Shown here in pieces: positions 461 through 13,241 of a stretch of DNA of 57,111 nucleotides. The notes under the pieces are model-generated. The model did not search any database and had not been told where the DNA came from. It saw nothing but the letters and a program-made list of their open reading frames with translations. Every line of letters begins with the position of its first letter. Position 1 is the stretch's first letter. The position numbers and the translations under genes are program-made. Source of the stretch: Kiritimatiellia bacterium (GTDB lineage: Bacteria > Verrucomicrobiota > Kiritimatiellia > RFP12 > UBA1067); assembly GCA_017650345.1 (NCBI GenBank), contig JAGCFB010000070.1:1-57111 (forward strand), read 5' to 3'.

Positions 461-671
461 ATGTCGGTGCTTTTTGGCGCTGAGAAAAATCAGCACGGGA
501 AATCGGGGGAATGTGGTATCATAGGTCTGCCATTGCAGCCAGGCCACGACGGCGGCTGCGGCAAGGCTGAACAAAACGATGAAAATAGATGGATTGTCTG
601 GGCGCTCGCCCAACCGACAGAACCTTCACCATGGTTCTGCTGGCGCGGCGCCGGCTGAGCCAAAAAACAAG

Positions 672-2060
672 ATGCTGCAGCGCTGCCAGGGCTGGGACTA
701 CAAGGCACCTTGCATCTACTCGATAACGATTGCCATCGCAGAGCGGCGGTCGATGGCTTTAGGGCGGCTTGTCATCGACAACGACGGCGGCGGCGATCCG
801 GCGAAGGTGGCGGCCCATGTAGAGCAGACGGCGGCGGGGCGGGCGGTAGATGCCGAGTGGCGGCGCATGGGCGATTTCACGCCAGCGATAAGGCCGCTCG
901 CGATCCAGATAATGCCAGACCACATCCACATCATCTTGCGCGTGACCGAGCGGCTTGCTCGCCCGCTCGGCCAGATAATCGCCGGCTTCAAGACCGGAAG
1001 CTCCAAGGCCGCGACCGGAAAGCCCGGCTTCTGGAGCGAGGGGTTTCAGGATACGATCCTGTTTCGCGAGGGCCAGCTCGAGAAGATGTTCAGATATGTG
1101 AGAGACAACCCGCGGCGGCTGGCGGTCAAGCGGCTATACCGCAAGTTCTTCACGGTAAGGCGCGACCTGGCGGTAGAGGTTGCGCTTACGCCCGCCCCGG
1201 TCGTCGCCGTTGGCGACGAGGTTGCGCTTACGCGCAACCAACAGAACAATAGCGGTGGTTTTGCTGGCGGTGGTTCTGTTGCCTCGGCGGCAGCCGGGGC
1301 TTGCCCCCGGCGGGGGCCGCTGCTTCACTTTCAGGCGATTGGCAACGAGGCGCTTTTGAAGGCGCCGGCGATCTTCCAGATACAGTGCTCGCGCAGCCAC
1401 CTCGCCTACCGGCGCGTGGCGAAGCCGGGCGGCGGGTTCAAGATCGCGCGCGACGGGAGCGGGCTGCCGATAATCGAGACCGAGACTTGCGAGTTTAGAG
1501 AGAAGCTTGCGGTGCTGCTTGCGATGGCCGCGAAGGGCGCGGTCTTGGTGTCGCCCTGCATCTCAGACGGCGAGCGCGAGATCGCCCGCAGCGCGATGGA
1601 TGCGGGCGCGAAGCTGATAACGCTCTCAAACAAGGGCTTCTCAAAGCTCTTCAAGCCGGGCGGCAAGGCCTTCGAGAGCGCGAGCGAAGGGCGGCTCCTG
1701 ATGCTGGCCCCCGCCGCCTGGCCCTACCAGCCCGGCGAGAAGAGGATGACGCGCCTCGACGCCTGCACGCTCAACCGCATAGCCCAGCTTATCGCGGGCG
1801 ATGGCGCGGCGGAGGTAAACTATCGCGGCATGAAGCCGGTCGATATTGCAGGCCGCGTTGCCGCCGCCTGCAAGGTTGGGCTTATGCCCGCCCCGGTCGT
1901 CGCCGTTGGCGACGAGGTTGCGCTTACGCGCAACCAACAGAACAATAGCGGTGGTTTTGCTGGCGGTGGTTCTGTTGCCTCGGCGGCAGCCGAGGCGGCG
2001 CCTTGCAGCCGCGCAGGAGCGGTTTTTTGCTATAATGTAGGAAATGGGAAAGACCTATAG
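672..2060 (+). CDS. HUH/Y1 transposase-like (IS200/RAYT-type) N-terminal domain fused to a DprA/SLOG-like C-terminal domain; alternative start ATG 579
   Basis: HUH motif MPDHIHIIL lies at 912-938 (His-Ile-His at 921-929). The catalytic-Tyr helix FRYVRDNPRR has its Tyr codon at 1095-1097. The N-terminal WDYKAPCIYSITIAIAERR strand is typical of the COG1943/PF01797 family. The C-terminal part (about 1300-1880) reads GAVLVSPCISDGEREIARSAMDAGAKLITL...GRLLMLAP...LNRIAQLIAG, which resembles the DprA Rossmann core (SGxAxGID..AH..AL..GG..I.VL ... RNRIIAGL). The single open frame ends at TAG 2058-2060. Confidence 0.6.
   Translation: MLQRCQGWDYKAPCIYSITIAIAERRSMALGRLVIDNDGGGDPAKVAAHVEQTAAGRAVDAEWRRMGDFTPAIRPLAIQIMPDHIHIILRVTERLARPLGQIIAGFKTGSSKAATGKPGFWSEGFQDTILFREGQLEKMFRYVRDNPRRLAVKRLYRKFFTVRRDLAVEVALTPAPVVAVGDEVALTRNQQNNSGGFAGGGSVASAAAGACPRRGPLLHFQAIGNEALLKAPAIFQIQCSRSHLAYRRVAKPGGGFKIARDGSGLPIIETETCEFREKLAVLLAMAAKGAVLVSPCISDGEREIARSAMDAGAKLITLSNKGFSKLFKPGGKAFESASEGRLLMLAPAAWPYQPGEKRMTRLDACTLNRIAQLIAGDGAAEVNYRGMKPVDIAGRVAAACKVGLMPAPVVAVGDEVALTRNQQNNSGGFAGGGSVASAAAEAAPCSRAGAVFCYNVGNGKDL
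1177..1296 (+). repeat. Structured ~106-120-nt element, copy A (three consecutive stem-loops), embedded in frame in the Y1/DprA-like ORF
   Basis: 1191-1296 is identical base for base to 1887-1992. Hairpins are TCGTCGCC-gtt-GGCGACGA (1201-1219), GGTTGCGC-ttac-GCGCAACC (1220-1239) and CAACAGAAC...GTTCTGTTG (1239-1281). An extra half-site GGTTGCGCTTACG lies at 1178-1190. Confidence 0.9.
1873..1992 (+). repeat. Structured ~106-120-nt element, copy B, same orientation and same reading frame as copy A
   Basis: 1887-1992 equals 1191-1296 exactly. The offset is 696 nt (a multiple of 3), so both copies encode PAPVVAVGDEVALTRNQQNNSGGFAGGGSVASAAA. The upstream flank GGTTGGGCTTATG is a diverged version of copy A's GGTTGCGCTTACG. 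Confidence 0.9.
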
Positions 2061-2096: not shown

Positions 2097-3548
2097 ATGA
2101 CGGCGGCGGCCATCGTCGCGGCGACGGCGCTCGAGCTCTTCTTCGCGGAGCCCGCTCCGCTGGAGATGCCGTCCGCCGAGGCGTACCTTGTGCGTATGAA
2201 CGGAGTGTCGCGCCTCGAGGACCGCTACGACGCGCTCGACCTGTGGACCTCTCAGTCCGTCATCGGACGCTGGATCGACGACGAGGGGCGCGTCTTCACG
2301 CTCGCTAGCCTGGACTACGCCCCGCCATCGTCCGCCGCGACGCGCCGCACGACGCGCGAGGGGTACGCCGCGACGCGCAAGCGCATCGGACCCAAGGACC
2401 TCGACGCGCGCGACGCCGCCGTGGCGCTGCTCTCCCCGTTCGACATGCCGGACGAGCCGTCCGCCTCCCACGTCGGGCTCAACGGCTGGAAGATACTCTA
2501 CTACCACGGAACCAACACCACCGCCGTCTCGTGCGCGTTCCTCCCGAAGGGCCGCGACACCTGGCACTTCGCGTCCTGGGAGCTCGCCGAGGGCGACGAC
2601 TTCGCCGTCGCGCTGGAGAGGTTCGAGTCGGACTTCCTCGCCGACTGGGACGCGGCGGTCGAGCGACACATCCCGACCGAGCGCGGCGCGGCGCAGGCCG
2701 AGAAGGCGCGCAGGCGCGGCGACGCCGATCCGCCGCTCCCCGGCGAGCGCGAGCTCCTGCGCGCCGACGCGCGCCACAGCGTCGCCAACTATCCGCGCTG
2801 GAACGTGACGGACGGACGCGAGTTCTCCGTCCTCGACGACCTCCGCGACACGAGCGGATTCGTCGTCGCCTTCACCAACGACCTCTCCGCCGTCCGCGCG
2901 CGCTACGCGTCCGTCCTGCCTAGCCCCATCGACGGAACCAACACCCTCTGCGTCGCGCGCATATTCCGCGACCGCGCCGAATACGCCGCCGCGCTCGGCG
3001 TGAACGGACGCGACGACATGGAGTGGAGCGCGGCCTACTGGAACCCGTCGCGCCGCGAGATCGTCGCCTACCTGCCGCCCGAGGGCGAGCGCGAGCTGCT
3101 GCGGACGCTGCGACACGAGGCCTTCCACCAGTACCTCTCCTACGCCTGCTCGATGATCGCGGCGTCCCCGTGGCTGAACGAGGGCTACGCGCAGTACTTC
3201 GAGGACGAGGAGTCCGCGGACTGGGGCCTCGGCGCGTGGCGTCCCGACCCGAAGGCGCTCGCGCCGCTGCTCCCGCTCGTCTTCGCCATGGACTACCGCG
3301 CCTTCTACTCCGGGACGGACGAGGAGCGCGCGCTCAAGTACAGGCTGGCGTGGTCCGTCGCCGTGTTCATAGAGAAGGGCGCGGACAAGGTGAGGGGGCG
3401 TCCGTTCGCCAACCTCAAGCGCGACTACGTCGCCGCGCTGATACGGACGCAGGACATGCTCAAGGCCACCGCCGCGGCGTTCGGGAGCGAGCGGGCGATG
3501 GATGACTTCGTTGACGAATGGGTGAGGTTCTGGACAGAGGGCCGCTAG
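2097..3548 (+). CDS. Putative MA-clan (gluzincin) zinc metallopeptidase, peptidase_MA_2/DUF1570-like
   Basis: HEAFH lies at 3114-3128, followed 18 residues later by WLNEGYAQY (3171-3197). This matches the HEXXH-X18-E / WLNEGFA active-site signature of M1-type gluzincins. The rest of the protein is not recognisable to me. Confidence 0.6.
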   Translation: MTAAAIVAATALELFFAEPAPLEMPSAEAYLVRMNGVSRLEDRYDALDLWTSQSVIGRWIDDEGRVFTLASLDYAPPSSAATRRTTREGYAATRKRIGPKDLDARDAAVALLSPFDMPDEPSASHVGLNGWKILYYHGTNTTAVSCAFLPKGRDTWHFASWELAEGDDFAVALERFESDFLADWDAAVERHIPTERGAAQAEKARRRGDADPPLPGERELLRADARHSVANYPRWNVTDGREFSVLDDLRDTSGFVVAFTNDLSAVRARYASVLPSPIDGTNTLCVARIFRDRAEYAAALGVNGRDDMEWSAAYWNPSRREIVAYLPPEGERELLRTLRHEAFHQYLSYACSMIAASPWLNEGYAQYFEDEESADWGLGAWRPDPKALAPLLPLVFAMDYRAFYSGTDEERALKYRLAWSVAVFIEKGADKVRGRPFANLKRDYVAALIRTQDMLKATAAAFGSERAMDDFVDEWVRFWTEGR

Positions 3549-4528
3549 ACGGCGGGTACGTCGGACGCCTCGCGCCGAGTCCGACGGGCGCTCTCCACCT
3601 CGGGAACGCGCGCACGTTCATGGTCGCATGGCTCCGCGCCCGTTCGCAGGGCGGCAGGGTCGTCATGCGCATGGAGGACCTCGACCATCCGCGCGACAAG
3701 CCCGGGGCGGCGTCCGCCGCGCTGGAGGACCTTCGCTGGCTCGGCTTCGACTGGGACGAGGAGCACGTCCAGTCCGCCCGCAAGGCGATCTATCGCGAGG
3801 CGCTCGGGTTCCTTCACGCGCGCGGACTCGTCTATCCGTGCGTCTGCAGCCGCCGCGACGTGGAGTCCGCCCAGTCCGCCCCCCACGCCGGCGACCAGCT
3901 CCACTACCCCGGGACGTGCCGCGGACGCTTCGCCGGCTGGAAGGAGGCCTTCGACTTCCTCAACCCCGTCCCGGCGGTCCCGCCGCGCCTTCCATGCTGG
4001 CGGTTCCGGGTCGAGCCCGGCGTGCGCGTCGCGTTCGAGGACGCCTTCGCGGGGCGGTTCGAGGCGGACGTGTCGGAGCGGTTGGGGGATTTTCCGCTTG
4101 CGCGCGACGAGGGCGGCGCGGGCTACACGCTCGCCGCCGTGGTTGACGACCTCCTCATGGGCGTCACGGAAGTGGTGCGCGGCGACGATCTCCTTGCCGC
4201 CACACCGGCGCAGATCCTGGTCGCGCGGGCGCTTTTAGACTGGCTTCCGGAGTCCCGCCGACGCCTTCCGACGTACTGCCACGTTCCGCTTGTGGTGGGG
4301 TCCGACGGACGCCGCCTGGCGAAGCGGCACGGGGACACGCGGATCGCCGCGTTCAGGGAGTCAGGCGCGAGCGCGGAGTCCGTCGTCGGACTCCTTGCGG
4401 CGTCCTGCGGCTGGTGCTCCCCCGGCGAGCGCGTCTCCCTTCGCGCGCTCCTTCCCCGCTTCGACCTCTCCACGATCCCCCGGCGTCCGTTCGTCCTCCG
4501 GGACGCACAAAATATTTTTCCCACATAA
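3518..4528 (+). CDS. gluQ: Glutamyl-Q tRNA(Asp) synthetase (GluQRS/YadB family)
   Basis: GRLAPSPTGALHLGN (HIGH-type motif), RMEDLDHPRD, YPCVCSRRD...YPGTCR and AAVVDDLLMGVTEVVRGDDL align well with E. coli YadB as I remember it. The protein is about 336 aa and lacks an anticodon-binding domain. It overlaps the upstream gene by 31 nt, so the start is uncertain. Confidence 0.8.
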   Translation: MGEVLDRGPLDGGYVGRLAPSPTGALHLGNARTFMVAWLRARSQGGRVVMRMEDLDHPRDKPGAASAALEDLRWLGFDWDEEHVQSARKAIYREALGFLHARGLVYPCVCSRRDVESAQSAPHAGDQLHYPGTCRGRFAGWKEAFDFLNPVPAVPPRLPCWRFRVEPGVRVAFEDAFAGRFEADVSERLGDFPLARDEGGAGYTLAAVVDDLLMGVTEVVRGDDLLAATPAQILVARALLDWLPESRRRLPTYCHVPLVVGSDGRRLAKRHGDTRIAAFRESGASAESVVGLLAASCGWCSPGERVSLRALLPRFDLSTIPRRPFVLRDAQNIFPT

Positions 4529-4539
4529 CGCGAACATTA

Positions 4540-4548
4540 TGCTATAAT
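4540..4548 (+). promoter_or_regulatory. Extended -10 promoter element TGCTATAAT upstream of the 21-kb giant-protein operon
   Basis: Exact TGnTATAAT sits in an AT-rich island between gluQ (stop at 4528) and the lipoprotein gene (ATG at 4606/4615). Confidence 0.55.
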
Positions 4549-4605
4549 GCGACAAGTGACTAATAAGCCGACAAGGCGGGAGACTACCCTGAAAACCAGT
4601 GGGGA

Positions 4606-8000: not shown

Positions 8001-10466
8001 CGCGAGGGAGCGAGCGCCTACGAGGGCATCGACCTCTGGATCCAGGACGGCACGTCCGAGGTCCGCTTCCCGATGGAGCTCGTTGGCGACCGCCAGTGGC
8101 GCGGATTCTACCCGACGACGAACGACACGGAGAAGACCGTCAAGTTCTGGTTCGAGGGACGCGCCAGGCAGGAGGACGGCGCGCTCGTTTACAACGCGGA
8201 CTCCGTCGGGCTCTTCTGCACGAAGGACGTCGAATCCGTCCCCGTGAACCTCACCGTCGAGGAGGAGGGCGGCGTCGAGCGAGAACTCGCGATCCCCGCG
8301 AAGCCCACGGCGAACTACATGGTCTTCCTCCTCAACGAGAAGGTACGCACGCTCTCGATCGCCAACGCGGACAGGCAGAACTTCGACTGCTGGTCCGCCT
8401 CCCGCCGCGAGACCCCGGACAAGTTCTACACCTCCTTCTACGAGACGAACTCCACCGCGACCATCCACTCGCGCATGCCGGAGTCGGAGGACGACAACTG
8501 CATCGAATACTTCACCCTCTCCTCCGCCACGAACAAGAACTGGCGCGAGTCGTTCTCCCTTTCCGGCGGACAGTCCGCCGTCGGCTATCCGATAGGCGAG
8601 AGCTTCCGCACAGAGACGACGCCCGAGAGCGCCTGGACGGCCGAGTTCGGCGCGTGGGCGCCCCAGAAGTACGGCGTCACGAACGCGACGGACTTCGCGC
8701 TCGAGATGAAGGGCCAGACGCTCGGAACGCTGATCTACAGCCGCAACAGCGACCTCGACCACGAGGCGCCGAACGGACTCGAGTCCATCTCCTTCAAGGC
8801 GAGGCTGTCGCAGCTGATGCGCTACCAGGACATCTCGTACAGCAACTACGGACTCGTTGACAACACGACTCTCACCAACTGCACGATCGCCGCGCAGGTG
8901 GCGGTCGATCCGACAGTCGGCCTCGACGGGTTCGACGGCGACGGCTCGATCTCCCTCGTCCTCGGCTACATGCCCGGACAGGGCTGCTACGAATACCGCG
9001 TGACGATCGACAACGTCGTCTCCAACGCCTTCGTCCAGGATTCCACGCAGGCGCTGACGGCCCGCTGCCGCCATGCGATCTACAAGTGGTACTACGACGA
9101 GAACGACGACGAGTACGTCGCCAAGGAGCTGTACTCGACGTTCGGCGACGCGACCTGGGGAACCGGCAACGGCGCGGCCTGGTGCTGGAAGGCGAACGTC
9201 GGCGACGACTCGACCGGAAGGAGCAAGATCGGCAGCCAGCTGCACATGTGCATGGGCGGCGACGGCTACTCCGGCATGTTCTTCTCCATAAGCAACGGCC
9301 TGAACAGGGTTTACCTCACCGGCGGCGTCACGGGCGGATCGGACAACAAGTCCGCCGGCGCCGAGGCGTTCACCTACGAGAACAAGGACTTCTGCATCAT
9401 CGCCGTCGAGGACCACATCGGGGACGACGGCTCGCCGATCTGGAACAAGGGCACGTACGGCTACATAACCAAGAACTGCCCGGCGCAGATCCTCTATCCG
9501 CGCGTCTATGAGCGCACCTCCGTCGCCCCGCTCGACACGGCCAGGGCCGAGGCGGGCGGACTCTACTGGACGACGAACGTTCCGCTCATCGCGGAGAGCG
9601 GCTACCACGCGGCCAGGACGGACGACATGGTGTTCCATCCGCGCCGCCTCGTCCCGTACTCCTACAACGAGCTGTGGGGATATGCCGCGGACACGAACGC
9701 CTACCAGACCGTTGACGTCTATATCCAGCCCATCAACGGCGGCGTCGAGGGCAACTGGTCGCTGGTCACGAAGGAGCTCGTCAGCTCCTTCCGCCTCGCC
9801 CCGTTCAGGCTTGACCTCCAGCTGGCGCAGACCTGCAACGTCAAGTTCCAGACGGGCGACTCCTCCACTGCCATCGTGATCGACGAGGCCACGCTCAGCC
9901 AATGGTGCGGCTCCAGCGGATCGCAGGACGGCTACGGCGAGGCGTACGCGAGGGACCCGGACACCTTCTGCTACTACGTTTCCTGGATATCCAACAAGGT
10001 CGTCCGTTCGCAGTCCGGCACGACGAGGAAGAAGGTGGCCGTGCTCGCGCCGCGCAGGGCGTCGTCCGCAAGGTCGGCCCTCGCCGTCCGCTCGCCCTTC
10101 ATGGAGGGCCTAGGGTCCGTCACGTTCTCCTACGAGGACGCCTACCCCGGCGCGCAGGTCCTCGTCCAGTGGTGCGCCTGCGACTACATGAGCATGGGCG
10201 ACAAGAGCTTCGAGCCGGCGGACTCCCCGGACTGGGAGACGATAGCGAGCTTCACGTTCGACGCCAGCGAGCGGAAGGGCACCCGCACCGTCCACCTCGG
10301 AAAGCGCGCCCCCGTTACGGGAGCCTTCCGCGTCGCGATCCCGCAGGACGTCGTCGCGCAGGCGCTGGAGGACGACACGCTCACGGAGACCCCCGAGTGG
10401 ATGTCCGTCTCCATAACCGACATGTTCTGCATCGACGAGCCGGCGTTCGATTCGCGCTCCTGGTAG
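5052..10466 (+). CDS. Giant secreted protein (1,804 aa) with an N-terminal DUF2341-like domain and a LamG/concanavalin-like domain
   Basis: Signal peptide MSLMKRALAALAAAFLATAAEAAA. DUF2341-like FRYFVDLDIAGY...GFPLLVRV...IFWVRLPSL...KWWFYGG lies at about 5124-5415. A LamG-like region (FIGVWHMGD...FTLSMWLSF...VYVNGEKAG...IYDEIRYS) lies at about 5440-6140. The N-terminal extension from 4929 shown in the track is rejected. The gene ends at TAG 10464-10466, and the next ORF is in the same frame. Confidence 0.8.
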   Translation: MSLMKRALAALAAAFLATAAEAAAFRYFVDLDIAGYEGKEELSGFPLLVRVSEAAVPGFRYADVTAHGGAGAVRFFTEDGEQLPSECEYWNTSGESIFWVRLPSLTPIGTKIRMKWWFYGGGTLEDSDSAGVWSDFIGVWHMGDSVDATEALNGKVARDSTAHGLDAVPQRGANGNLSLMVSKDGPVGLARVNQSNNQLKGNQFVVPYDRVMDVGSSFTLSMWLSFTGYDTASPCIVSTKRNKASSEVTEEDTPGWAVSLRKSNYWNQLQLRGSGDLAPYVTVSDSPVRNRGFLRYDLVYSGSRVLVYVNGEKAGEETVNAVASSGAPLRFGNNTNETCSVNGIYDEIRYSKGAMSADWIAADYAQQKAGGGYVSFGTLCAGESLFWSEDPSITPSVWHPGEAATVQVRARALSDGDDVPWRLKFTNLVTGETSDKVPDAIGSYEALFYVPRSSLERSIHVDVINETPVAVTGSDRVLVFSRDVETVPEAPVEDDQTCGNVNPANSVYWKYLNDDEPGEGSQPLLQPGTVFELWTGEAAGEDAGRRLWRFEQCRLGNTFNNKANTGAVDGEQNYLPVSTKASRFNAADRTASQYRHGGTVMLRNTKSAGVYSPCYEDGIGTIYFDAVNGWVAYPNNIVVEVCTGVKPLNAEGNGVVGNIPETDDDGVNLPPTDGNCGYTDEDGIEHPFGRCIWTQVAVHRYVVSGGAIDTYLSGDIEADDADGIPLDCTVGGATDNWFRIRAGALNIRVPARFRIRRLDSGSNYYDASTEASVLDGEGLVILDNLICTMPAATIGLSQFGAYRNDTDPGKDDQSRRALGQVGAFSVAFPSWSETNLVGRAKATYEGYTNIVSNVEGLDIGDGSGMVTTMRMDWRWRRLDQSFSQWEAIYMRPKEGLPEVWETLKPLKITDDDGEPLYGEGDIEYRVQAIVDGPFGVFADYTDLAVGVGGYSERIGTVDCENGGSYNTLVGTCGIVKDSTFVRLREGASAYEGIDLWIQDGTSEVRFPMELVGDRQWRGFYPTTNDTEKTVKFWFEGRARQEDGALVYNADSVGLFCTKDVESVPVNLTVEEEGGVERELAIPAKPTANYMVFLLNEKVRTLSIANADRQNFDCWSASRRETPDKFYTSFYETNSTATIHSRMPESEDDNCIEYFTLSSATNKNWRESFSLSGGQSAVGYPIGESFRTETTPESAWTAEFGAWAPQKYGVTNATDFALEMKGQTLGTLIYSRNSDLDHEAPNGLESISFKARLSQLMRYQDISYSNYGLVDNTTLTNCTIAAQVAVDPTVGLDGFDGDGSISLVLGYMPGQGCYEYRVTIDNVVSNAFVQDSTQALTARCRHAIYKWYYDENDDEYVAKELYSTFGDATWGTGNGAAWCWKANVGDDSTGRSKIGSQLHMCMGGDGYSGMFFSISNGLNRVYLTGGVTGGSDNKSAGAEAFTYENKDFCIIAVEDHIGDDGSPIWNKGTYGYITKNCPAQILYPRVYERTSVAPLDTARAEAGGLYWTTNVPLIAESGYHAARTDDMVFHPRRLVPYSYNELWGYAADTNAYQTVDVYIQPINGGVEGNWSLVTKELVSSFRLAPFRLDLQLAQTCNVKFQTGDSSTAIVIDEATLSQWCGSSGSQDGYGEAYARDPDTFCYYVSWISNKVVRSQSGTTRKKVAVLAPRRASSARSALAVRSPFMEGLGSVTFSYEDAYPGAQVLVQWCACDYMSMGDKSFEPADSPDWETIASFTFDASERKGTRTVHLGKRAPVTGAFRVAIPQDVVAQALEDDTLTETPEWMSVSITDMFCIDEPAFDSRSW

Positions 10467-10547: not shown

Positions 10548-13241
10548 GTGGGCGTCCTCAACTCGACGGCCCTCGACGAGTCCACCCTCGAAACCGGCAA
10601 CAGCGAGGACTACATCTCAAACAACCCGTTCTTCCAGTCCCCGACGTTCACCACGAACTGGATCGGCGAGATCTCCTTCAGGGCGCGCGCCTACGACGGC
10701 GACGGACCCAGCTGCCTCACGGTCTGGGCGGCGCGCGAGGGCGCGACGACCACAGGCGAGGACTGGATCGCGCTCACGAACATCATCGTGTCCGGCCGCG
10801 AGTACCGCCGCGTCGTGGTGAAGTGCATGGACGACGACCGCTACGCCGCGATCAGGATCGGTGTCGCCAACGCAGAGGGCGTGACAGGCGAGTTCAAGCT
10901 CGATCCCGCCGCCAAGGAGGACATGCCCGACGCCCCGACCCGCGTCGTGATCGACGACGTCGTCGTCACGGAGCGCGGCTTCCCGGAGATCGGCTTCCGC
11001 ATCGACTTCGCGCGTCCGTTCCGACTCGGACTCTCCGACCGCACGGCCGTCGAGGACATCGACACCGGCATGGAGCAGCCGCTCCTCGACGAGCAGTTCG
11101 GCTTCCAGGCCGAGGTCCTCATCGGCGGCGCGAGCGAGGAGATCGACCTCTCCATCACACCGAAGGTCTATGTCAGCTACTACCCGGCCAAGGAGCCTTG
11201 GGGCTACAAGAACTGGAAGGACCTTCCCGAAGCGTTCCTCCGCATAGAGCTTCCGCCGGCCGAGGGGACGAACCTCGTCTATCGCTCGATGCCCGAGAAC
11301 CCCGACACCTACGTCATGCCGCAGCCGATGCTCGACGACGAGAACTACGGACTCGTCCAGTACTTCCTCGAAGTGCGCTACTGGAAGTACGGCGAAACCG
11401 AGTCCGACGCCGGACACTGGGCGTCCATCAACGCGACCCAGTGGCGCATGCCCACATGGGACGAGGGCTTCGAAGACCCCAACGGCGTGGAAGGCGCCGC
11501 GTTCTCGCCGTTCACGCTTCTCGATTCCGTCTCGCCGGGCCGCGCCTGGATCAACGAGGTCAACTACACGGCCATCGGCGACGACTCCTATACGGACCAG
11601 GAGAAGCAGTTCATCGAGGTCTGCTTCCCGGGCGGAAGCGACATGACCGGCTGGCGCGTGTACCGCTACAGGCGCATGTCGAGTGCGACGGACTTCATGA
11701 AGCAGGACTTCATGTTCATGTTCGGCGCGGACGGCGTGCCCGCCACGAAGCAGATCGGCGAGTCCCATCCCGTCTATGCGTTCGTCGCCGTCAAGGATCC
11801 GTCCTCCAGCGTCGATGAGGCGGACGCCGACTGGAACGACGAAGTGTCGAGCTGCGCCCGCACCAAGAGCTACGGCTTCCAGCTCGTGAGGCCCACCGGC
11901 GTCATCGAGCAGCAGATCGTCGTCCAGGGTCTGCACAACCCGAACGACCGCAACTCGAAGTACGAGGCCGGAACCAACGTCGTGAGGGTTCTCAACGAGT
12001 TGTTCGAGGACTATACGGAGAAGAAGTGGGACTACGTCGGCGTGGACACCAACGTCGCCGGAAGGTCCGTCGGCGTTTACCAGAACGCCGGCCAGCTGCT
12101 TGGCGACTGGAACAGCTGGATGCACTTCACGCCAGGCCTCCTCAACGAGGACCAGACCATACCCGACGACTGGTACATCCCCGCCACGGGCATGAACCTC
12201 TGGCTCAGCGTCACGACCGGTCCGAACGTCTGGATCGTCGGCGCGGGCGGGCCCGTCTCCGCCGCGTCCTTCGTGGTCCCCGAGGGACAGAGCACCAACC
12301 TCGTCTTCGAGGTCTCCCCGTGGTACAAGCTCGGCTCGCTCCTCCTCGACGGGACGACGGAGGCCATAGCGGACGCCGTTCGCACTGCGGAGGAGGCGTC
12401 CGTCGCCGGACGCTCCGTCTGGACGTACGAGTACGTCAATCCGGGCGTCAACAAGGGGACCGTGCTAGCCAGCGCCGCGATCGACGATTCCGTCCTCGTG
12501 CGCGGCGACCTCGATCCGGACGATCCCTACACGCCCGCGATCATGGACTGGCTCCTCAAGGGCTCGCTCGACGGCACGTGGGAGGGGACCGAGATCTCGA
12601 CGAACTGCTGGCACTGGGGCATTCACTCCTCGCACGAGAGCGGCACGAACGTCACGCTGAAGGGACGCTACTGGCTCGACATAGACCCGACCTCCGACAG
12701 GTGGGACGTCCGCACCGGATACACCAAGACGGCGATGCCCATCTACCGTCCGGCGTCGGACGGATACTGGCCGGAGTCCGTCACCAACACGCGCATGACG
12801 GTCTTCGTAATGATCTCCAACAAGATCGACAACGCCGAGTCGTATCCGCCGTACCGCCTCCAGGGTCTCGGCGGCGAGAGGAGCGACGAGGTCGGGCCGT
12901 TCGCCTGGACGAGCGTCACGTTCCAGGTCCAGGCAGCGCTCAAGTACAACGGGAGCAGCGGCTACATAGACGTCAGCGGCAACTTCTATCCTCTCAGGCA
13001 GTTCGTCTTCGACAACGACAGCTTCGGCGCGCCCGGCTCGCCGCATCCCTTCCAGGCGAGCATCGAGATCCTCGACAACAGGTCCACAACCTCGCCCGGC
13101 TACGGCTACGGATGGACGCCCGAGCTGACGCCCAAGGGCGGAGAGGACCTCTACTGGAGGTTTAGGATAGACGAGAGGACCTTCAGGCAGTCGCCCGACA
13201 TGCTGAAGATGGTCGATACGTGGGATGGAGGCTGGCAGTGA
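10548..13241 (+). CDS. Large secreted/surface protein segment with a lamin-tail-domain (LTD)-like region; possibly the C-terminal continuation of 5052-10466
   Basis: Same frame as the upstream gene (both start coordinates are divisible by 3). There is no ATG or convincing RBS between TAG 10466 and GTG 10548. The LTD-like motif GRAWINEVNYTAIGDD...QFIEVCFPGGSDMTGWRVY lies at about 11538-11670. Protein-like sequence continues straight through 10467-10547. Confidence 0.65.
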   Translation: MGVLNSTALDESTLETGNSEDYISNNPFFQSPTFTTNWIGEISFRARAYDGDGPSCLTVWAAREGATTTGEDWIALTNIIVSGREYRRVVVKCMDDDRYAAIRIGVANAEGVTGEFKLDPAAKEDMPDAPTRVVIDDVVVTERGFPEIGFRIDFARPFRLGLSDRTAVEDIDTGMEQPLLDEQFGFQAEVLIGGASEEIDLSITPKVYVSYYPAKEPWGYKNWKDLPEAFLRIELPPAEGTNLVYRSMPENPDTYVMPQPMLDDENYGLVQYFLEVRYWKYGETESDAGHWASINATQWRMPTWDEGFEDPNGVEGAAFSPFTLLDSVSPGRAWINEVNYTAIGDDSYTDQEKQFIEVCFPGGSDMTGWRVYRYRRMSSATDFMKQDFMFMFGADGVPATKQIGESHPVYAFVAVKDPSSSVDEADADWNDEVSSCARTKSYGFQLVRPTGVIEQQIVVQGLHNPNDRNSKYEAGTNVVRVLNELFEDYTEKKWDYVGVDTNVAGRSVGVYQNAGQLLGDWNSWMHFTPGLLNEDQTIPDDWYIPATGMNLWLSVTTGPNVWIVGAGGPVSAASFVVPEGQSTNLVFEVSPWYKLGSLLLDGTTEAIADAVRTAEEASVAGRSVWTYEYVNPGVNKGTVLASAAIDDSVLVRGDLDPDDPYTPAIMDWLLKGSLDGTWEGTEISTNCWHWGIHSSHESGTNVTLKGRYWLDIDPTSDRWDVRTGYTKTAMPIYRPASDGYWPESVTNTRMTVFVMISNKIDNAESYPPYRLQGLGGERSDEVGPFAWTSVTFQVQAALKYNGSSGYIDVSGNFYPLRQFVFDNDSFGAPGSPHPFQASIEILDNRSTTSPGYGYGWTPELTPKGGEDLYWRFRIDERTFRQSPDMLKMVDTWDGGWQ

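Follow-up and report, generated by a model that had tools for sequence, protein, structure and literature searches.

The window analysed here comprises 57,111 nucleotides of a Kiritimatiellia bacterium (positions 1 to 57,111 of contig JAGCFB010000070.1, assembly GCA_017650345.1), and it carries at positions 672–2060 of the plus strand a gene for a fusion of two domains, namely a Y1 HUH domain that resembles REP-associated tyrosine transposases (RAYTs; REP, repetitive extragenic palindromic) and a DprA-like domain. The start at 672 (MLQRC) is the one called in an identical public protein (P0001); the open reading frame (ORF) itself is open from 525, with its first ATG at 579. Embedded in this gene are two copies of a compound hairpin element, both on the plus strand. 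Copy A (1177–1300, core 1191–1296) encodes the interdomain linker and is orthologous to linker elements at the homologous loci L304, L305 and L312, and copy B (1873–1996, core 1887–1992) forms the 3' end of the ORF. A degenerate doublet of related hairpins lies at 599–660, just 5' of the MLQRC start.

The two cores match at every base over 106 nt, and the start-to-start distance of the copies is 696 nt. Both are in frame with the ORF 579–2060 and share a 35-residue product, PAPVVAVGDEVALTRNQQNNSGGFAGGGSVASAAA. The identity, the spacing and the shared in-frame peptide had been stated in an original prediction made from the sequence, and they were confirmed by alignment and by probe counts: the 49-nt and 57-nt halves of the 106-nt element each occur twice in the window with 0 mismatches, at a shuffle expectation of 0. 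The repeat is in fact wider, as 124 nt (1177–1300 and 1873–1996) are 98% identical, with three mismatches at 1183, 1189 and 1297 (copy A numbering), all outside the identical core. The 124-nt element folds strongly, the free energy being −68.8 kcal/mol for RNA (z = −4.5) and −41.3 kcal/mol for DNA (z = −5.3), and 0 of 200 shuffles were as good in either case. The possibility of an assembly duplication, raised with the prediction, has become improbable: a 5.1-kb contig of the same species from a separate assembly (L001; ENA ERZ28653429) is 99.96% identical over 2690 nt and contains both copies, which makes a one-off assembly error unlikely.

The AlphaFold (AF2) model of the protein, built from 45 homologues, shows two folded domains with a predicted local distance difference test (pLDDT) score of about 90. 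With Foldseek, the N-terminal domain matched the TnpA proteins of IS608 and ISDra2 and the RAYT of Escherichia coli in complex with REP DNA (4er8; root-mean-square deviation 2.6 Å), and the C-terminal domain matched DprA of Helicobacter pylori (4ljr; E = 6e-4, about 188 aligned columns) and, more weakly, ShosA (8zva; E = 9e-3). The predicted Y1 HUH/DprA-like fusion is thus supported by Foldseek, together with a sub-threshold match to the NCBIfam family REP_Tyr_transpos. The DprA relationship is one of predicted fold only, as neither Pfam nor NCBIfam gave a DprA match at the sequence level. Pfam recognised Y1_Tnp weakly (13.8 bits, cut-off 23), and judged by the curated Pfam and NCBIfam thresholds the protein is a distant RAYT relative and not a member. 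Searches of the protein with PADLOC and with PDB sequence profiles returned nothing. In the alignment of 45 sequences, H84, Y142, N146 and P147 are invariant and H86 is present in at least 90%, and the catalytic motifs are intact. The HUH motif is DH[IV]H, and the tyrosine motif Y142-V-R-D-N146-P147 is of the RAYT type Y-x-x-D-N-P, not Y-x-x-x-Q. The distance from HuH to Y is 58 residues, and a range of 58–67 is given in the published RAYT classification (PMC6006769). The model drops below a pLDDT of 50 at residues 174–212 and 404–462; these are the sole long low-confidence segments, both are encoded by the repeats, and the repeat-encoded linker and tail are accordingly predicted to be disordered.

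The element had been described as a triple hairpin, and the three stem-loops do exist in the core: TCGTCGCC-GTT-GGCGACGA, GGTTGCGC-TTAC-GCGCAACC, and CAACAGAAC...GTTCTGTTG with 9 bp and a 25-nt loop. A fourth hairpin, GCCTCGGC-GGCA-GCCGAGGC, had been missed; it spans the 3' edge of the core and is perfect in copy B only. The element is better read as an accessory hairpin followed by an inverted dimer of two units, each unit comprising a hairpin (perfect stem of 8 bp, loop of 4 nt), a single spacer base and the conserved tail ACAG[A/G]AC. On the opposite strand, a unit appears as the tag CTGTYCTGT followed by the palindrome. The two inverted units are 25 nt apart, and what had been taken for a 9-bp third hairpin is the pairing of their two tails (1239–1247 with 1273–1281). 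In copy A, the plus unit GGTTGCGC-TTAC-GCGCAACC-A-ACAGAAC lies at 1220–1247, and the minus unit (reverse complement GCCCCGGC-TGCC-GCCGAGGC-A-ACAGAAC), found by a relaxed scanner with 7 of 8 stem pairs, at 1273–1300. In copy B, the plus unit at 1916–1943 has the same sequence as that of copy A (unit scanners), and the minus unit at 1969–1996 (reverse complement GCCTCGGC-TGCC-GCCGAGGC-A-ACAGAAC) has a perfect 8-bp stem. Ahead of the dimer are a partial unit (1177–1191) and the accessory hairpin TCGTCGCC-GTT-GGCGACGA (1199–1217, plus strand), which has no tail and, as indicated by folds and by comparison with L312 and L304, is missing from the simpler linker of L312. The degenerate upstream doublet (599–660, plus strand) consists of TGGGC-GCTC-GCCCA + ACCG + ACAGAAC, a 9-nt spacer, and GGTTCTGCTGG with a GC-rich remnant. 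It was supported by membership in a direct-repeat family (D5), a weak nhmmer match at 598–647, the unit scanner and the upstream regions of homologues, and it is the counterpart of a well-preserved upstream doublet in close homologues.

More than 2000 homologues of the protein were found, most of them from Kiritimatiellae of the rumen and gut, and almost all are unannotated and about 400 residues long; those with names are from Kiritimatiellae. The 62 loci that we fetched from species-representative genomes belong to metagenome-assembled genomes (MAGs) of Kiritimatiellae, 'Verrucomicrobia' and Lentisphaerae from rumen and gut, and remote relatives come from Bacteroidales. Phage records gave no match, and plasmid records one remote partial match (a Leptolinea plasmid). 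The protein alignment contains a hypervariable linker of peptides of the type 'GLTPAQQN...GSV..A.A', which are sometimes in tandem and have similar counterparts in N-terminal extensions; homologue linkers differ by tandem 42-nt (14-residue) repeats. At the DNA level, these GLTPAQQN-type peptides of linkers and extensions are hairpin-plus-tail units. Across 54 related loci, units recur at particular sites: ahead of the start, in two Y1-domain loops (of which one separates HuH from Y), in the linker, and at the 3' end or directly behind it. The reading frame is kept by the units at q~32–76, by those at q~112–121 in the HuH-to-Y interval, and by the linker and C-terminal ones. Doublets of inverted units upstream, and units at or after the 3' end, are seen in the window and at many homologue loci. 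In close homologues, the tails of the upstream doublet pair around a spacer that holds the Shine–Dalgarno sequence and the start codon, as in L025 (AACAGGAGGCGGCGATG). The upstream DNA motif is kept in different frames, reading RAYARPTEQ at one locus and GLTPAQQN at another, which argues for a constraint on the nucleic acid. Selection at this level rather than on the protein had been one of the options proposed from the window, and it is borne out by homologue units that occupy the same sites with different stems, in both orientations and, upstream, in differing frames. The proposal that the copies bracket the DprA-like part is true for the window; the bracket conserved in the family, though, is the upstream and the linker element around the Y1 domain, with the 3' end as a third site.

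A unit census over 475 kb was anchored on the 8-nt tail alone, so that a hairpin was not required. A perfect hairpin (8 bp, 4-nt loop) stands in exact register directly ahead of 70 of the 175 tails, and at another 26 tails 7 of the 8 pairs form; the control, a window 60 nt upstream of the tails, gave 0 perfect hairpins. The 70 perfect units represent 30 distinct stems. In the tail-anchored alignment of 62 distinct sequences, 81% of the cells pair, as compared to 60% in shuffled alignments (0 of 500 reach the observed value) and 20–41% in slid registers. All eight stem pairs are changed on both sides, and double-change cells number 106 where 33 are expected. Covariation of the stems, named in the original prediction as a check, is therefore strong across the related loci. 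The perfect units are also concentrated at the gene: 63 lie within the gene ±300 nt (95 kb) and 7 in the flanks (380 kb, 0.018 per kb), which is a 36-fold higher density at the gene.

Stem and loop types are specific to the protein clade. We found CCCGGCAC-T[T/G]CC, CTTGGCGC-TGCC, CCGAGAGC-TTGC, CCTCGCCA-A[A/G]AA, CTCCGGGC-TGAA, CCATGCCG-CACG, and AT-containing stems of 9–10 bp with 3-nt loops. The tail 3' of the hairpin is [C/A]ACAG[A/G]AC, and in other clades it varies (CACGGGACA, CACGGAAC). MAGs contain at most two paralogues, and few have two; these have 41–58% identity to the query and different hairpin types, and such paralogue pairs within one MAG are L029 versus L039 and L006 versus L038. 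In the MAG UBA6982, the two types are CCCGGCAC-TTCC and CCTCGCCA-AAAA. Units in one locus are more alike than units at the same site in other clades, which points to ongoing copying or homogenisation. Remote homologues in Bacteroidales and Paludibacteraceae are flanked by tandem hairpin arrays of their own (L060 3609–3845; L057 5018–5139; L063 4907–5242). The array of L060 has five 44-nt tandem repeats, CCCGCAT-GCG-ATGCGGG+GGAGTTTGACAC, and another consists of repeats of GGTTAGATT-TTCC-AATCTAACC preceded by ACAATGTC. An extreme in-frame expansion was observed in the Kiritimatiellae homologue L042 (4150–4556), where tandem 30-nt units CCTCGCCA-AGAA-TGGCGAGG-CACGGGACAACCTC lie within the coding sequence, two at 4150–4199 and four at 4447–4556.

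Units also occur away from the gene. When 185,579 species genomes were scanned with a degenerate unit pattern, which was biased to one hairpin type, the true hairpin units among the matches listed came solely from Kiritimatiellae and 'Verrucomicrobia' MAGs. At least 11 dispersed loci, all of these two origins, have no gene copy within about 8 kb. Dispersed units are often in frame in long ORFs, in either orientation, and yield ALPxRAQDR or CSVPGAEAPG peptides (L191 ~4769; L268 ~4949; L285 6894–7141; L293 ~3641; L298 ~7517). One dispersed unit directly follows an N-terminus that resembles a signal peptide and is conserved in two MAGs (…SCPVPGAEAPGFLDVV…), and at some dispersed loci there are tandem expansions of the tail only (VPGAVCS ×3, AAGTGQ ×4). 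At L262 (7161–7631), about 2.8 kb away from a dispersed unit, there is a distant Y1-only relative that lacks the DprA-like part (28% identity to residues 3–166); its MAG also has the full fusion gene. Some matches were discarded. The pattern CAACAGAAC-N(5–35)-GTTCTGTTG was too unspecific for genome-wide use, with at least 120 chance matches over all phyla, and the Firmicutes coding-sequence matches to GCTKCCGCNNNNNGCACAGRACAG had no hairpin on inspection. The sequence TACAT[C/G]ACGCTGCCGCAGTC[C/T]GCACAGAACAGTATG, likewise without a hairpin, is highly conserved in many gut Firmicutes (L189, L190, L193 and about 40 others among the matches listed); it is unrelated to the units and probably part of a conserved gene on a widespread mobile element.

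The age of the 3' copy can be judged from the relatives L304, L305 and L312 (80–87% identity). They have the orthologous linker element and no copy of it at the 3' end, where its place is taken by another, older unit that is in frame (GCCGAGCG-TA-CGCTCGGC-CAACTGGACA) or by what is left of that unit in degenerate form. In the alignment of the 3' ends, for which L304, L305, L312 and L002 were used, positions 1873–1893 of the window resemble both this 3' remnant and the start of the linker element, and the identical core begins right after them; the segment looks like the remnant of a degenerate ancestral 3' unit. We infer a recent event in which the old degenerate 3' unit either received a copy of the linker element or was converted by it, which would have lengthened the ORF by about 50 residues; the limits of the tract are then given by the mismatches at 1183, 1189 and 1297. 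The recent origin that had been suspected for the identical copy thus agrees with its absence from the closest relatives, and the 3' copy is lineage-specific and was most likely copied or converted from the linker element. An initial reading of the 3' end of L304 as a precise deletion of a 24-nt unit was withdrawn, as the alignment shows a degenerate unit there.

Taken together, the element is, in our view, probably a compound of REP-like units that would serve the gene's own RAYT-like Y1 HUH domain as putative cognate sites on single-stranded DNA, so that the locus would resemble a REPtron, with units that flank the gene and also sit inside it. In such a system, the Y1 domain would bind the hairpins on single-stranded DNA and cut or join them, and the DprA-like domain might hold the single strand or recruit RecA. 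Activity mostly in cis would keep seeding and homogenising units at the gene's own locus, and selection would spare only copies that are in frame in disordered loops, the linker or the tail, which would explain why both copies are translated. The identical pair is then most likely the product of recent copying of a compound REP dimer, which is tolerated since its peptide is disordered. Several observations weigh against this reading. The association between the Y1 domain and the hairpins is purely genomic, and the match of the protein to NCBIfam NF047646 (REP_Tyr_transpos; E = 6e-9) reaches 35.9 bits at a cut-off of 80. Stems differ between the two units of a doublet, which is not so in a classical REPIN, and the tag of about 10 nt (CTGTYCTGT-G on the strand on which the tag comes first) is neither the GTAG nor the CGTC of REPs. 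No unit was found outside the gene in the 57-kb window, nor in the flanks of the closest clade (L002–L005, L025), and in the lineage of the window the units are therefore unlike abundant dispersed REPs. Finally, the microhomology at the left boundary of copy B is compatible with ordinary template switching or gene conversion and needs no catalysis by Y1.

The hairpins might instead act in the mRNA, for example as autoregulatory sites of protein binding, as barriers to RNases, or as translation attenuators by which the ratio of Y1-only to full-length product is set; on this view, a stabiliser or terminator module would have been duplicated to give the 3' copy. The strong RNA fold of the element would fit this, as would the Shine–Dalgarno sequence and start enclosed by the upstream doublet of close homologues such as L025, and the terminator-like hairpin with a T-run that directly follows copy B. 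REPs are moreover known to affect mRNA stability and translation (PMC3733652). A pure RNA role would, however, leave the clade-specific hairpin types and the units in unrelated ORFs unexplained. Both unit orientations occur in the same gene and in other genes, the upstream doublet of the window encloses no in-frame start, and the Rfam search gave no family, only matches far under each family's gathering score. Mismatches in the stems on the sense strand show no excess of G·U (16 G·T versus 13 A·C), a count without signal either way, and on the whole we consider an mRNA role unlikely. The idea that the copies are left and right ends like those of IS200/IS605 elements, with Y1 moving or excising the 696-nt DprA segment and leaving a Y1-only gene and a circular single-stranded intermediate, draws on the two identical direct copies that flank the DprA-like coding part, on the fold that the N-terminal domain shares with the TnpA proteins of IS608 and ISDra2, on a genomic context of the gene that varies among close relatives, and on the frame-keeping spacing, as a precise deletion would leave an open Y1-only ORF. 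Yet the identical 3' copy occurs in this species only, the pattern of the family brackets the Y1 domain as well, and the tyrosine motif is of the RAYT type and not Y-x-x-x-Q (PMC6006769, Table 1). IS200/IS605 ends are not identical 124-nt direct repeats, and no multicopy identical element and no second copy in the window were seen. When the exact 24-nt unit was used to search metagenome contigs for excision variants, it was present in one other contig, which contained an ordinary full-length homologue, and no deletion or circle junction was recovered. The analogy to IS200/IS605 ends, which the original prediction had drawn, is not the most fitting one in view of this motif, the lack of a near-identical multicopy whole element and the REP-like tag and palindrome in inverted dimers, and we regard this explanation as improbable.

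The copies could also result from an ordinary duplication of a low-complexity linker at the protein level, the palindromes being incidental to GC-rich coding of Ala, Gly and Pro. Both copies are indeed translated into low-complexity peptides that are predicted to be disordered, and homologue linkers have the tandem 42-nt (14-residue) repeats. Nevertheless, a peptide-level origin does not account for perfect 8-bp stems in a fixed register, a conserved tail, 30 stem variants and compensatory changes, nor for an upstream motif in different reading frames, and the two orientations yield unrelated peptides (ALPxRAQDR versus CSVPGAEAPG). The covariation, and a conservation that does not depend on the frame, already contradict it, and it appears very improbable. 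A further alternative is an assembly artefact, in which a repeat of 106–124 nt would have been mis-resolved in the de Bruijn graph or strains would have been mixed. The data are metagenomic, and the length of the repeat is near typical maximum k-mer sizes. Against this, two contigs from different assemblies, one single-nucleotide polymorphism apart, have the same arrangement, and the copies can be told apart by the flank differences at 1183, 1189 and 1297. The left junction of copy B (DprA C-terminus to element) and its right junction (element to terminator and promoter) must furthermore both exist in reads, so that the element lies downstream of the DprA part in some molecule, and an artefact is hardly credible.

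A bolder version of the REP-like reading would make the Y1-DprA protein an active single-stranded DNA-editing enzyme that writes in-frame, peptide-coding units into its own and other genes and that could excise the segment between direct copies; in the window, the DprA-like module would then be removed in frame, or circularised, in a programmed manner (junction 1190|1993). We consider this improbable. If true, such an excision could serve defence or phase variation, as the gene is often within type I restriction-modification operons. The function of RAYT-type HUH enzymes and of REPs is largely unsettled, and the family provides an unusually clean natural experiment: with thousands of members in gut and rumen, a hairpin type for each clade and differing types for paralogues, cognate recognition can be tested with short oligonucleotides. 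The fusion to a DprA-like domain suggests that HUH cleavage is linked to RecA-mediated recombination, and the placement in type I restriction-modification operons raises a possible defence-related role. For annotation, a large unannotated family can be named RAYT-like/DprA-like, and its hypervariable linker can be recognised as repeat DNA and not as a protein motif.

The surroundings of the gene have features of their own. The window begins within a plus-strand CRISPR array (1–333), with a 29-nt type I-E-like repeat (GCTTTCCCCACGCGAGTGGGGATGTTCCG), a 61-nt period and a degenerate terminal repeat at 305–326; in L001, the similarity to the CRISPR repeat runs about 2.3 kb further upstream, and the Y1-DprA gene starts about 250–350 nt past the array. 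A 15-nt match with one mismatch between a spacer-repeat junction of the array (175–189, GTTGGCGACGAGCTT) and the accessory hairpin (1209–1223 and 1905–1919, GTTGGCGACGAGGTT) is probably due to chance, and a link between the element and the array was rejected for this reason and since homologues are not generally located beside CRISPR arrays. Integron attC sites, with the motif RYYYAAC/GTTRRRY, were considered in view of the AAC...GTT pairing and were rejected as well, because the motif of the element does not fit and the enzyme is of the wrong class. The terminator-like hairpin with its T-run (2002–2030, plus strand), a consensus match only, lies within the last codons of the ORF. The whole gene is bracketed by a 70-nt direct repeat (391–460 and 2024–2093, 84% identical), of which there is no other full copy in the window. 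Its first letters, TTTTTGCTATAATG, resemble the −10 box of a promoter, and its last, GGGGTGTGGC, immediately precede a start codon; the second copy forms the leader of the following gene (2097–3548, a weak DUF1570 match). The repeat may be a relic of the arrival of the gene. At several homologue loci, the gene is surrounded by a type I restriction-modification operon (L307 6409–13437; L309 4825–10428; L002–L004), in the layouts hsdM-X-hsdS-hsdR or hsdM-hsdS-X and with overlapping start and stop codons, and in L025 and L305 only the first hsdS codons remain after the gene. This context suggests a role in a defence island or one linked to restriction-modification. In L305, two tRNA-like sequences (9800–9895 and ~11320–11400) appear to lie on either side of the gene and the truncated hsdS start, which would suggest a small island at a tRNA site; the tRNA-like sequences were read by eye and not with ARAGORN.

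Among known systems, IS200/IS605 elements share with the locus the catalytic fold and hairpins of one strand that flank the coding sequence, and IS200 is similar in size to the distance from the upstream to the linker element (~700 nt). They differ from it in that here the motif is Y-x-x-x-N-P and not Y-x-x-x-Q, no multicopy element with conserved ends was seen, hairpins lie inside the ORF, and the ends are inverted dimers with a long tag. DprA/Smf and ShosA resemble the C-terminal domain in the predicted DprA Rossmann-like fold (4ljr and 8zva in Foldseek), whereas here this fold is joined to an HUH nuclease and has no sequence-level DprA match in Pfam or NCBIfam. In-frame intragenic REP dimers were described in several species, together with Rickettsia palindromic elements (RPEs), and include the GTAG/CGTC REPs of Opitutus terrae (Di Nocera et al., 2013, PMC3733652), which like our bacterium belongs to the Planctomycetes-Verrucomicrobia-Chlamydiae superphylum. 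As here, these are short palindromic repeats, often dimers, that are in frame within protein-coding genes and add 20–40 residues at tolerant sites, sometimes twice per ORF; in our case, however, the host gene encodes the presumed cognate enzyme, the same sites are occupied throughout the family, and unit and tag are different. The closest parallels are with the REP/REPIN-RAYT systems, or REPtrons (Bertels and Rainey, 2011, PMC3116915; Ton-Hoang et al., 2012, PMC3333891; Quentin et al., 2018, PMC6006769). Common to both are a single-tyrosine HUH enzyme with a Y-x-x-x-N-P motif, short tagged palindromes that flank the gene as inverted dimers, and a hairpin type that tracks the protein clade. Some copies are dispersed in the genome as well; a REPtron typically has tens to hundreds of them, mostly extragenic, and here a few were seen in some genomes, many of them intragenic. 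The differences are the DprA-like fusion with about 400 residues, compared to published subclass medians of 148–325 (PMC6006769), the perfect 8-bp stem and 4-nt loop in dimers whose partners have different stems, the 36-fold concentration at the gene with units rare or absent elsewhere in the lineage of the window, and the frequent embedding of the gene in type I restriction-modification operons. Within the TnpA_REP proteins, subclass 2.4 (RAYT group 4) has in-frame REPs within the tnpAREP gene (PMC6006769), and as in that subclass, the units within the gene described here keep the frame and are located in loops and linkers. The motifs of subclass 2.4, NH[IFV]H and YIxNNP, are not matched, and the behaviour is therefore analogous in a different protein family. 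We found no paper on a Y1-DprA fusion or on these repeats; in-frame REPs inside RAYT genes were already known, and what is new here is the architecture with a fused DprA-like domain.

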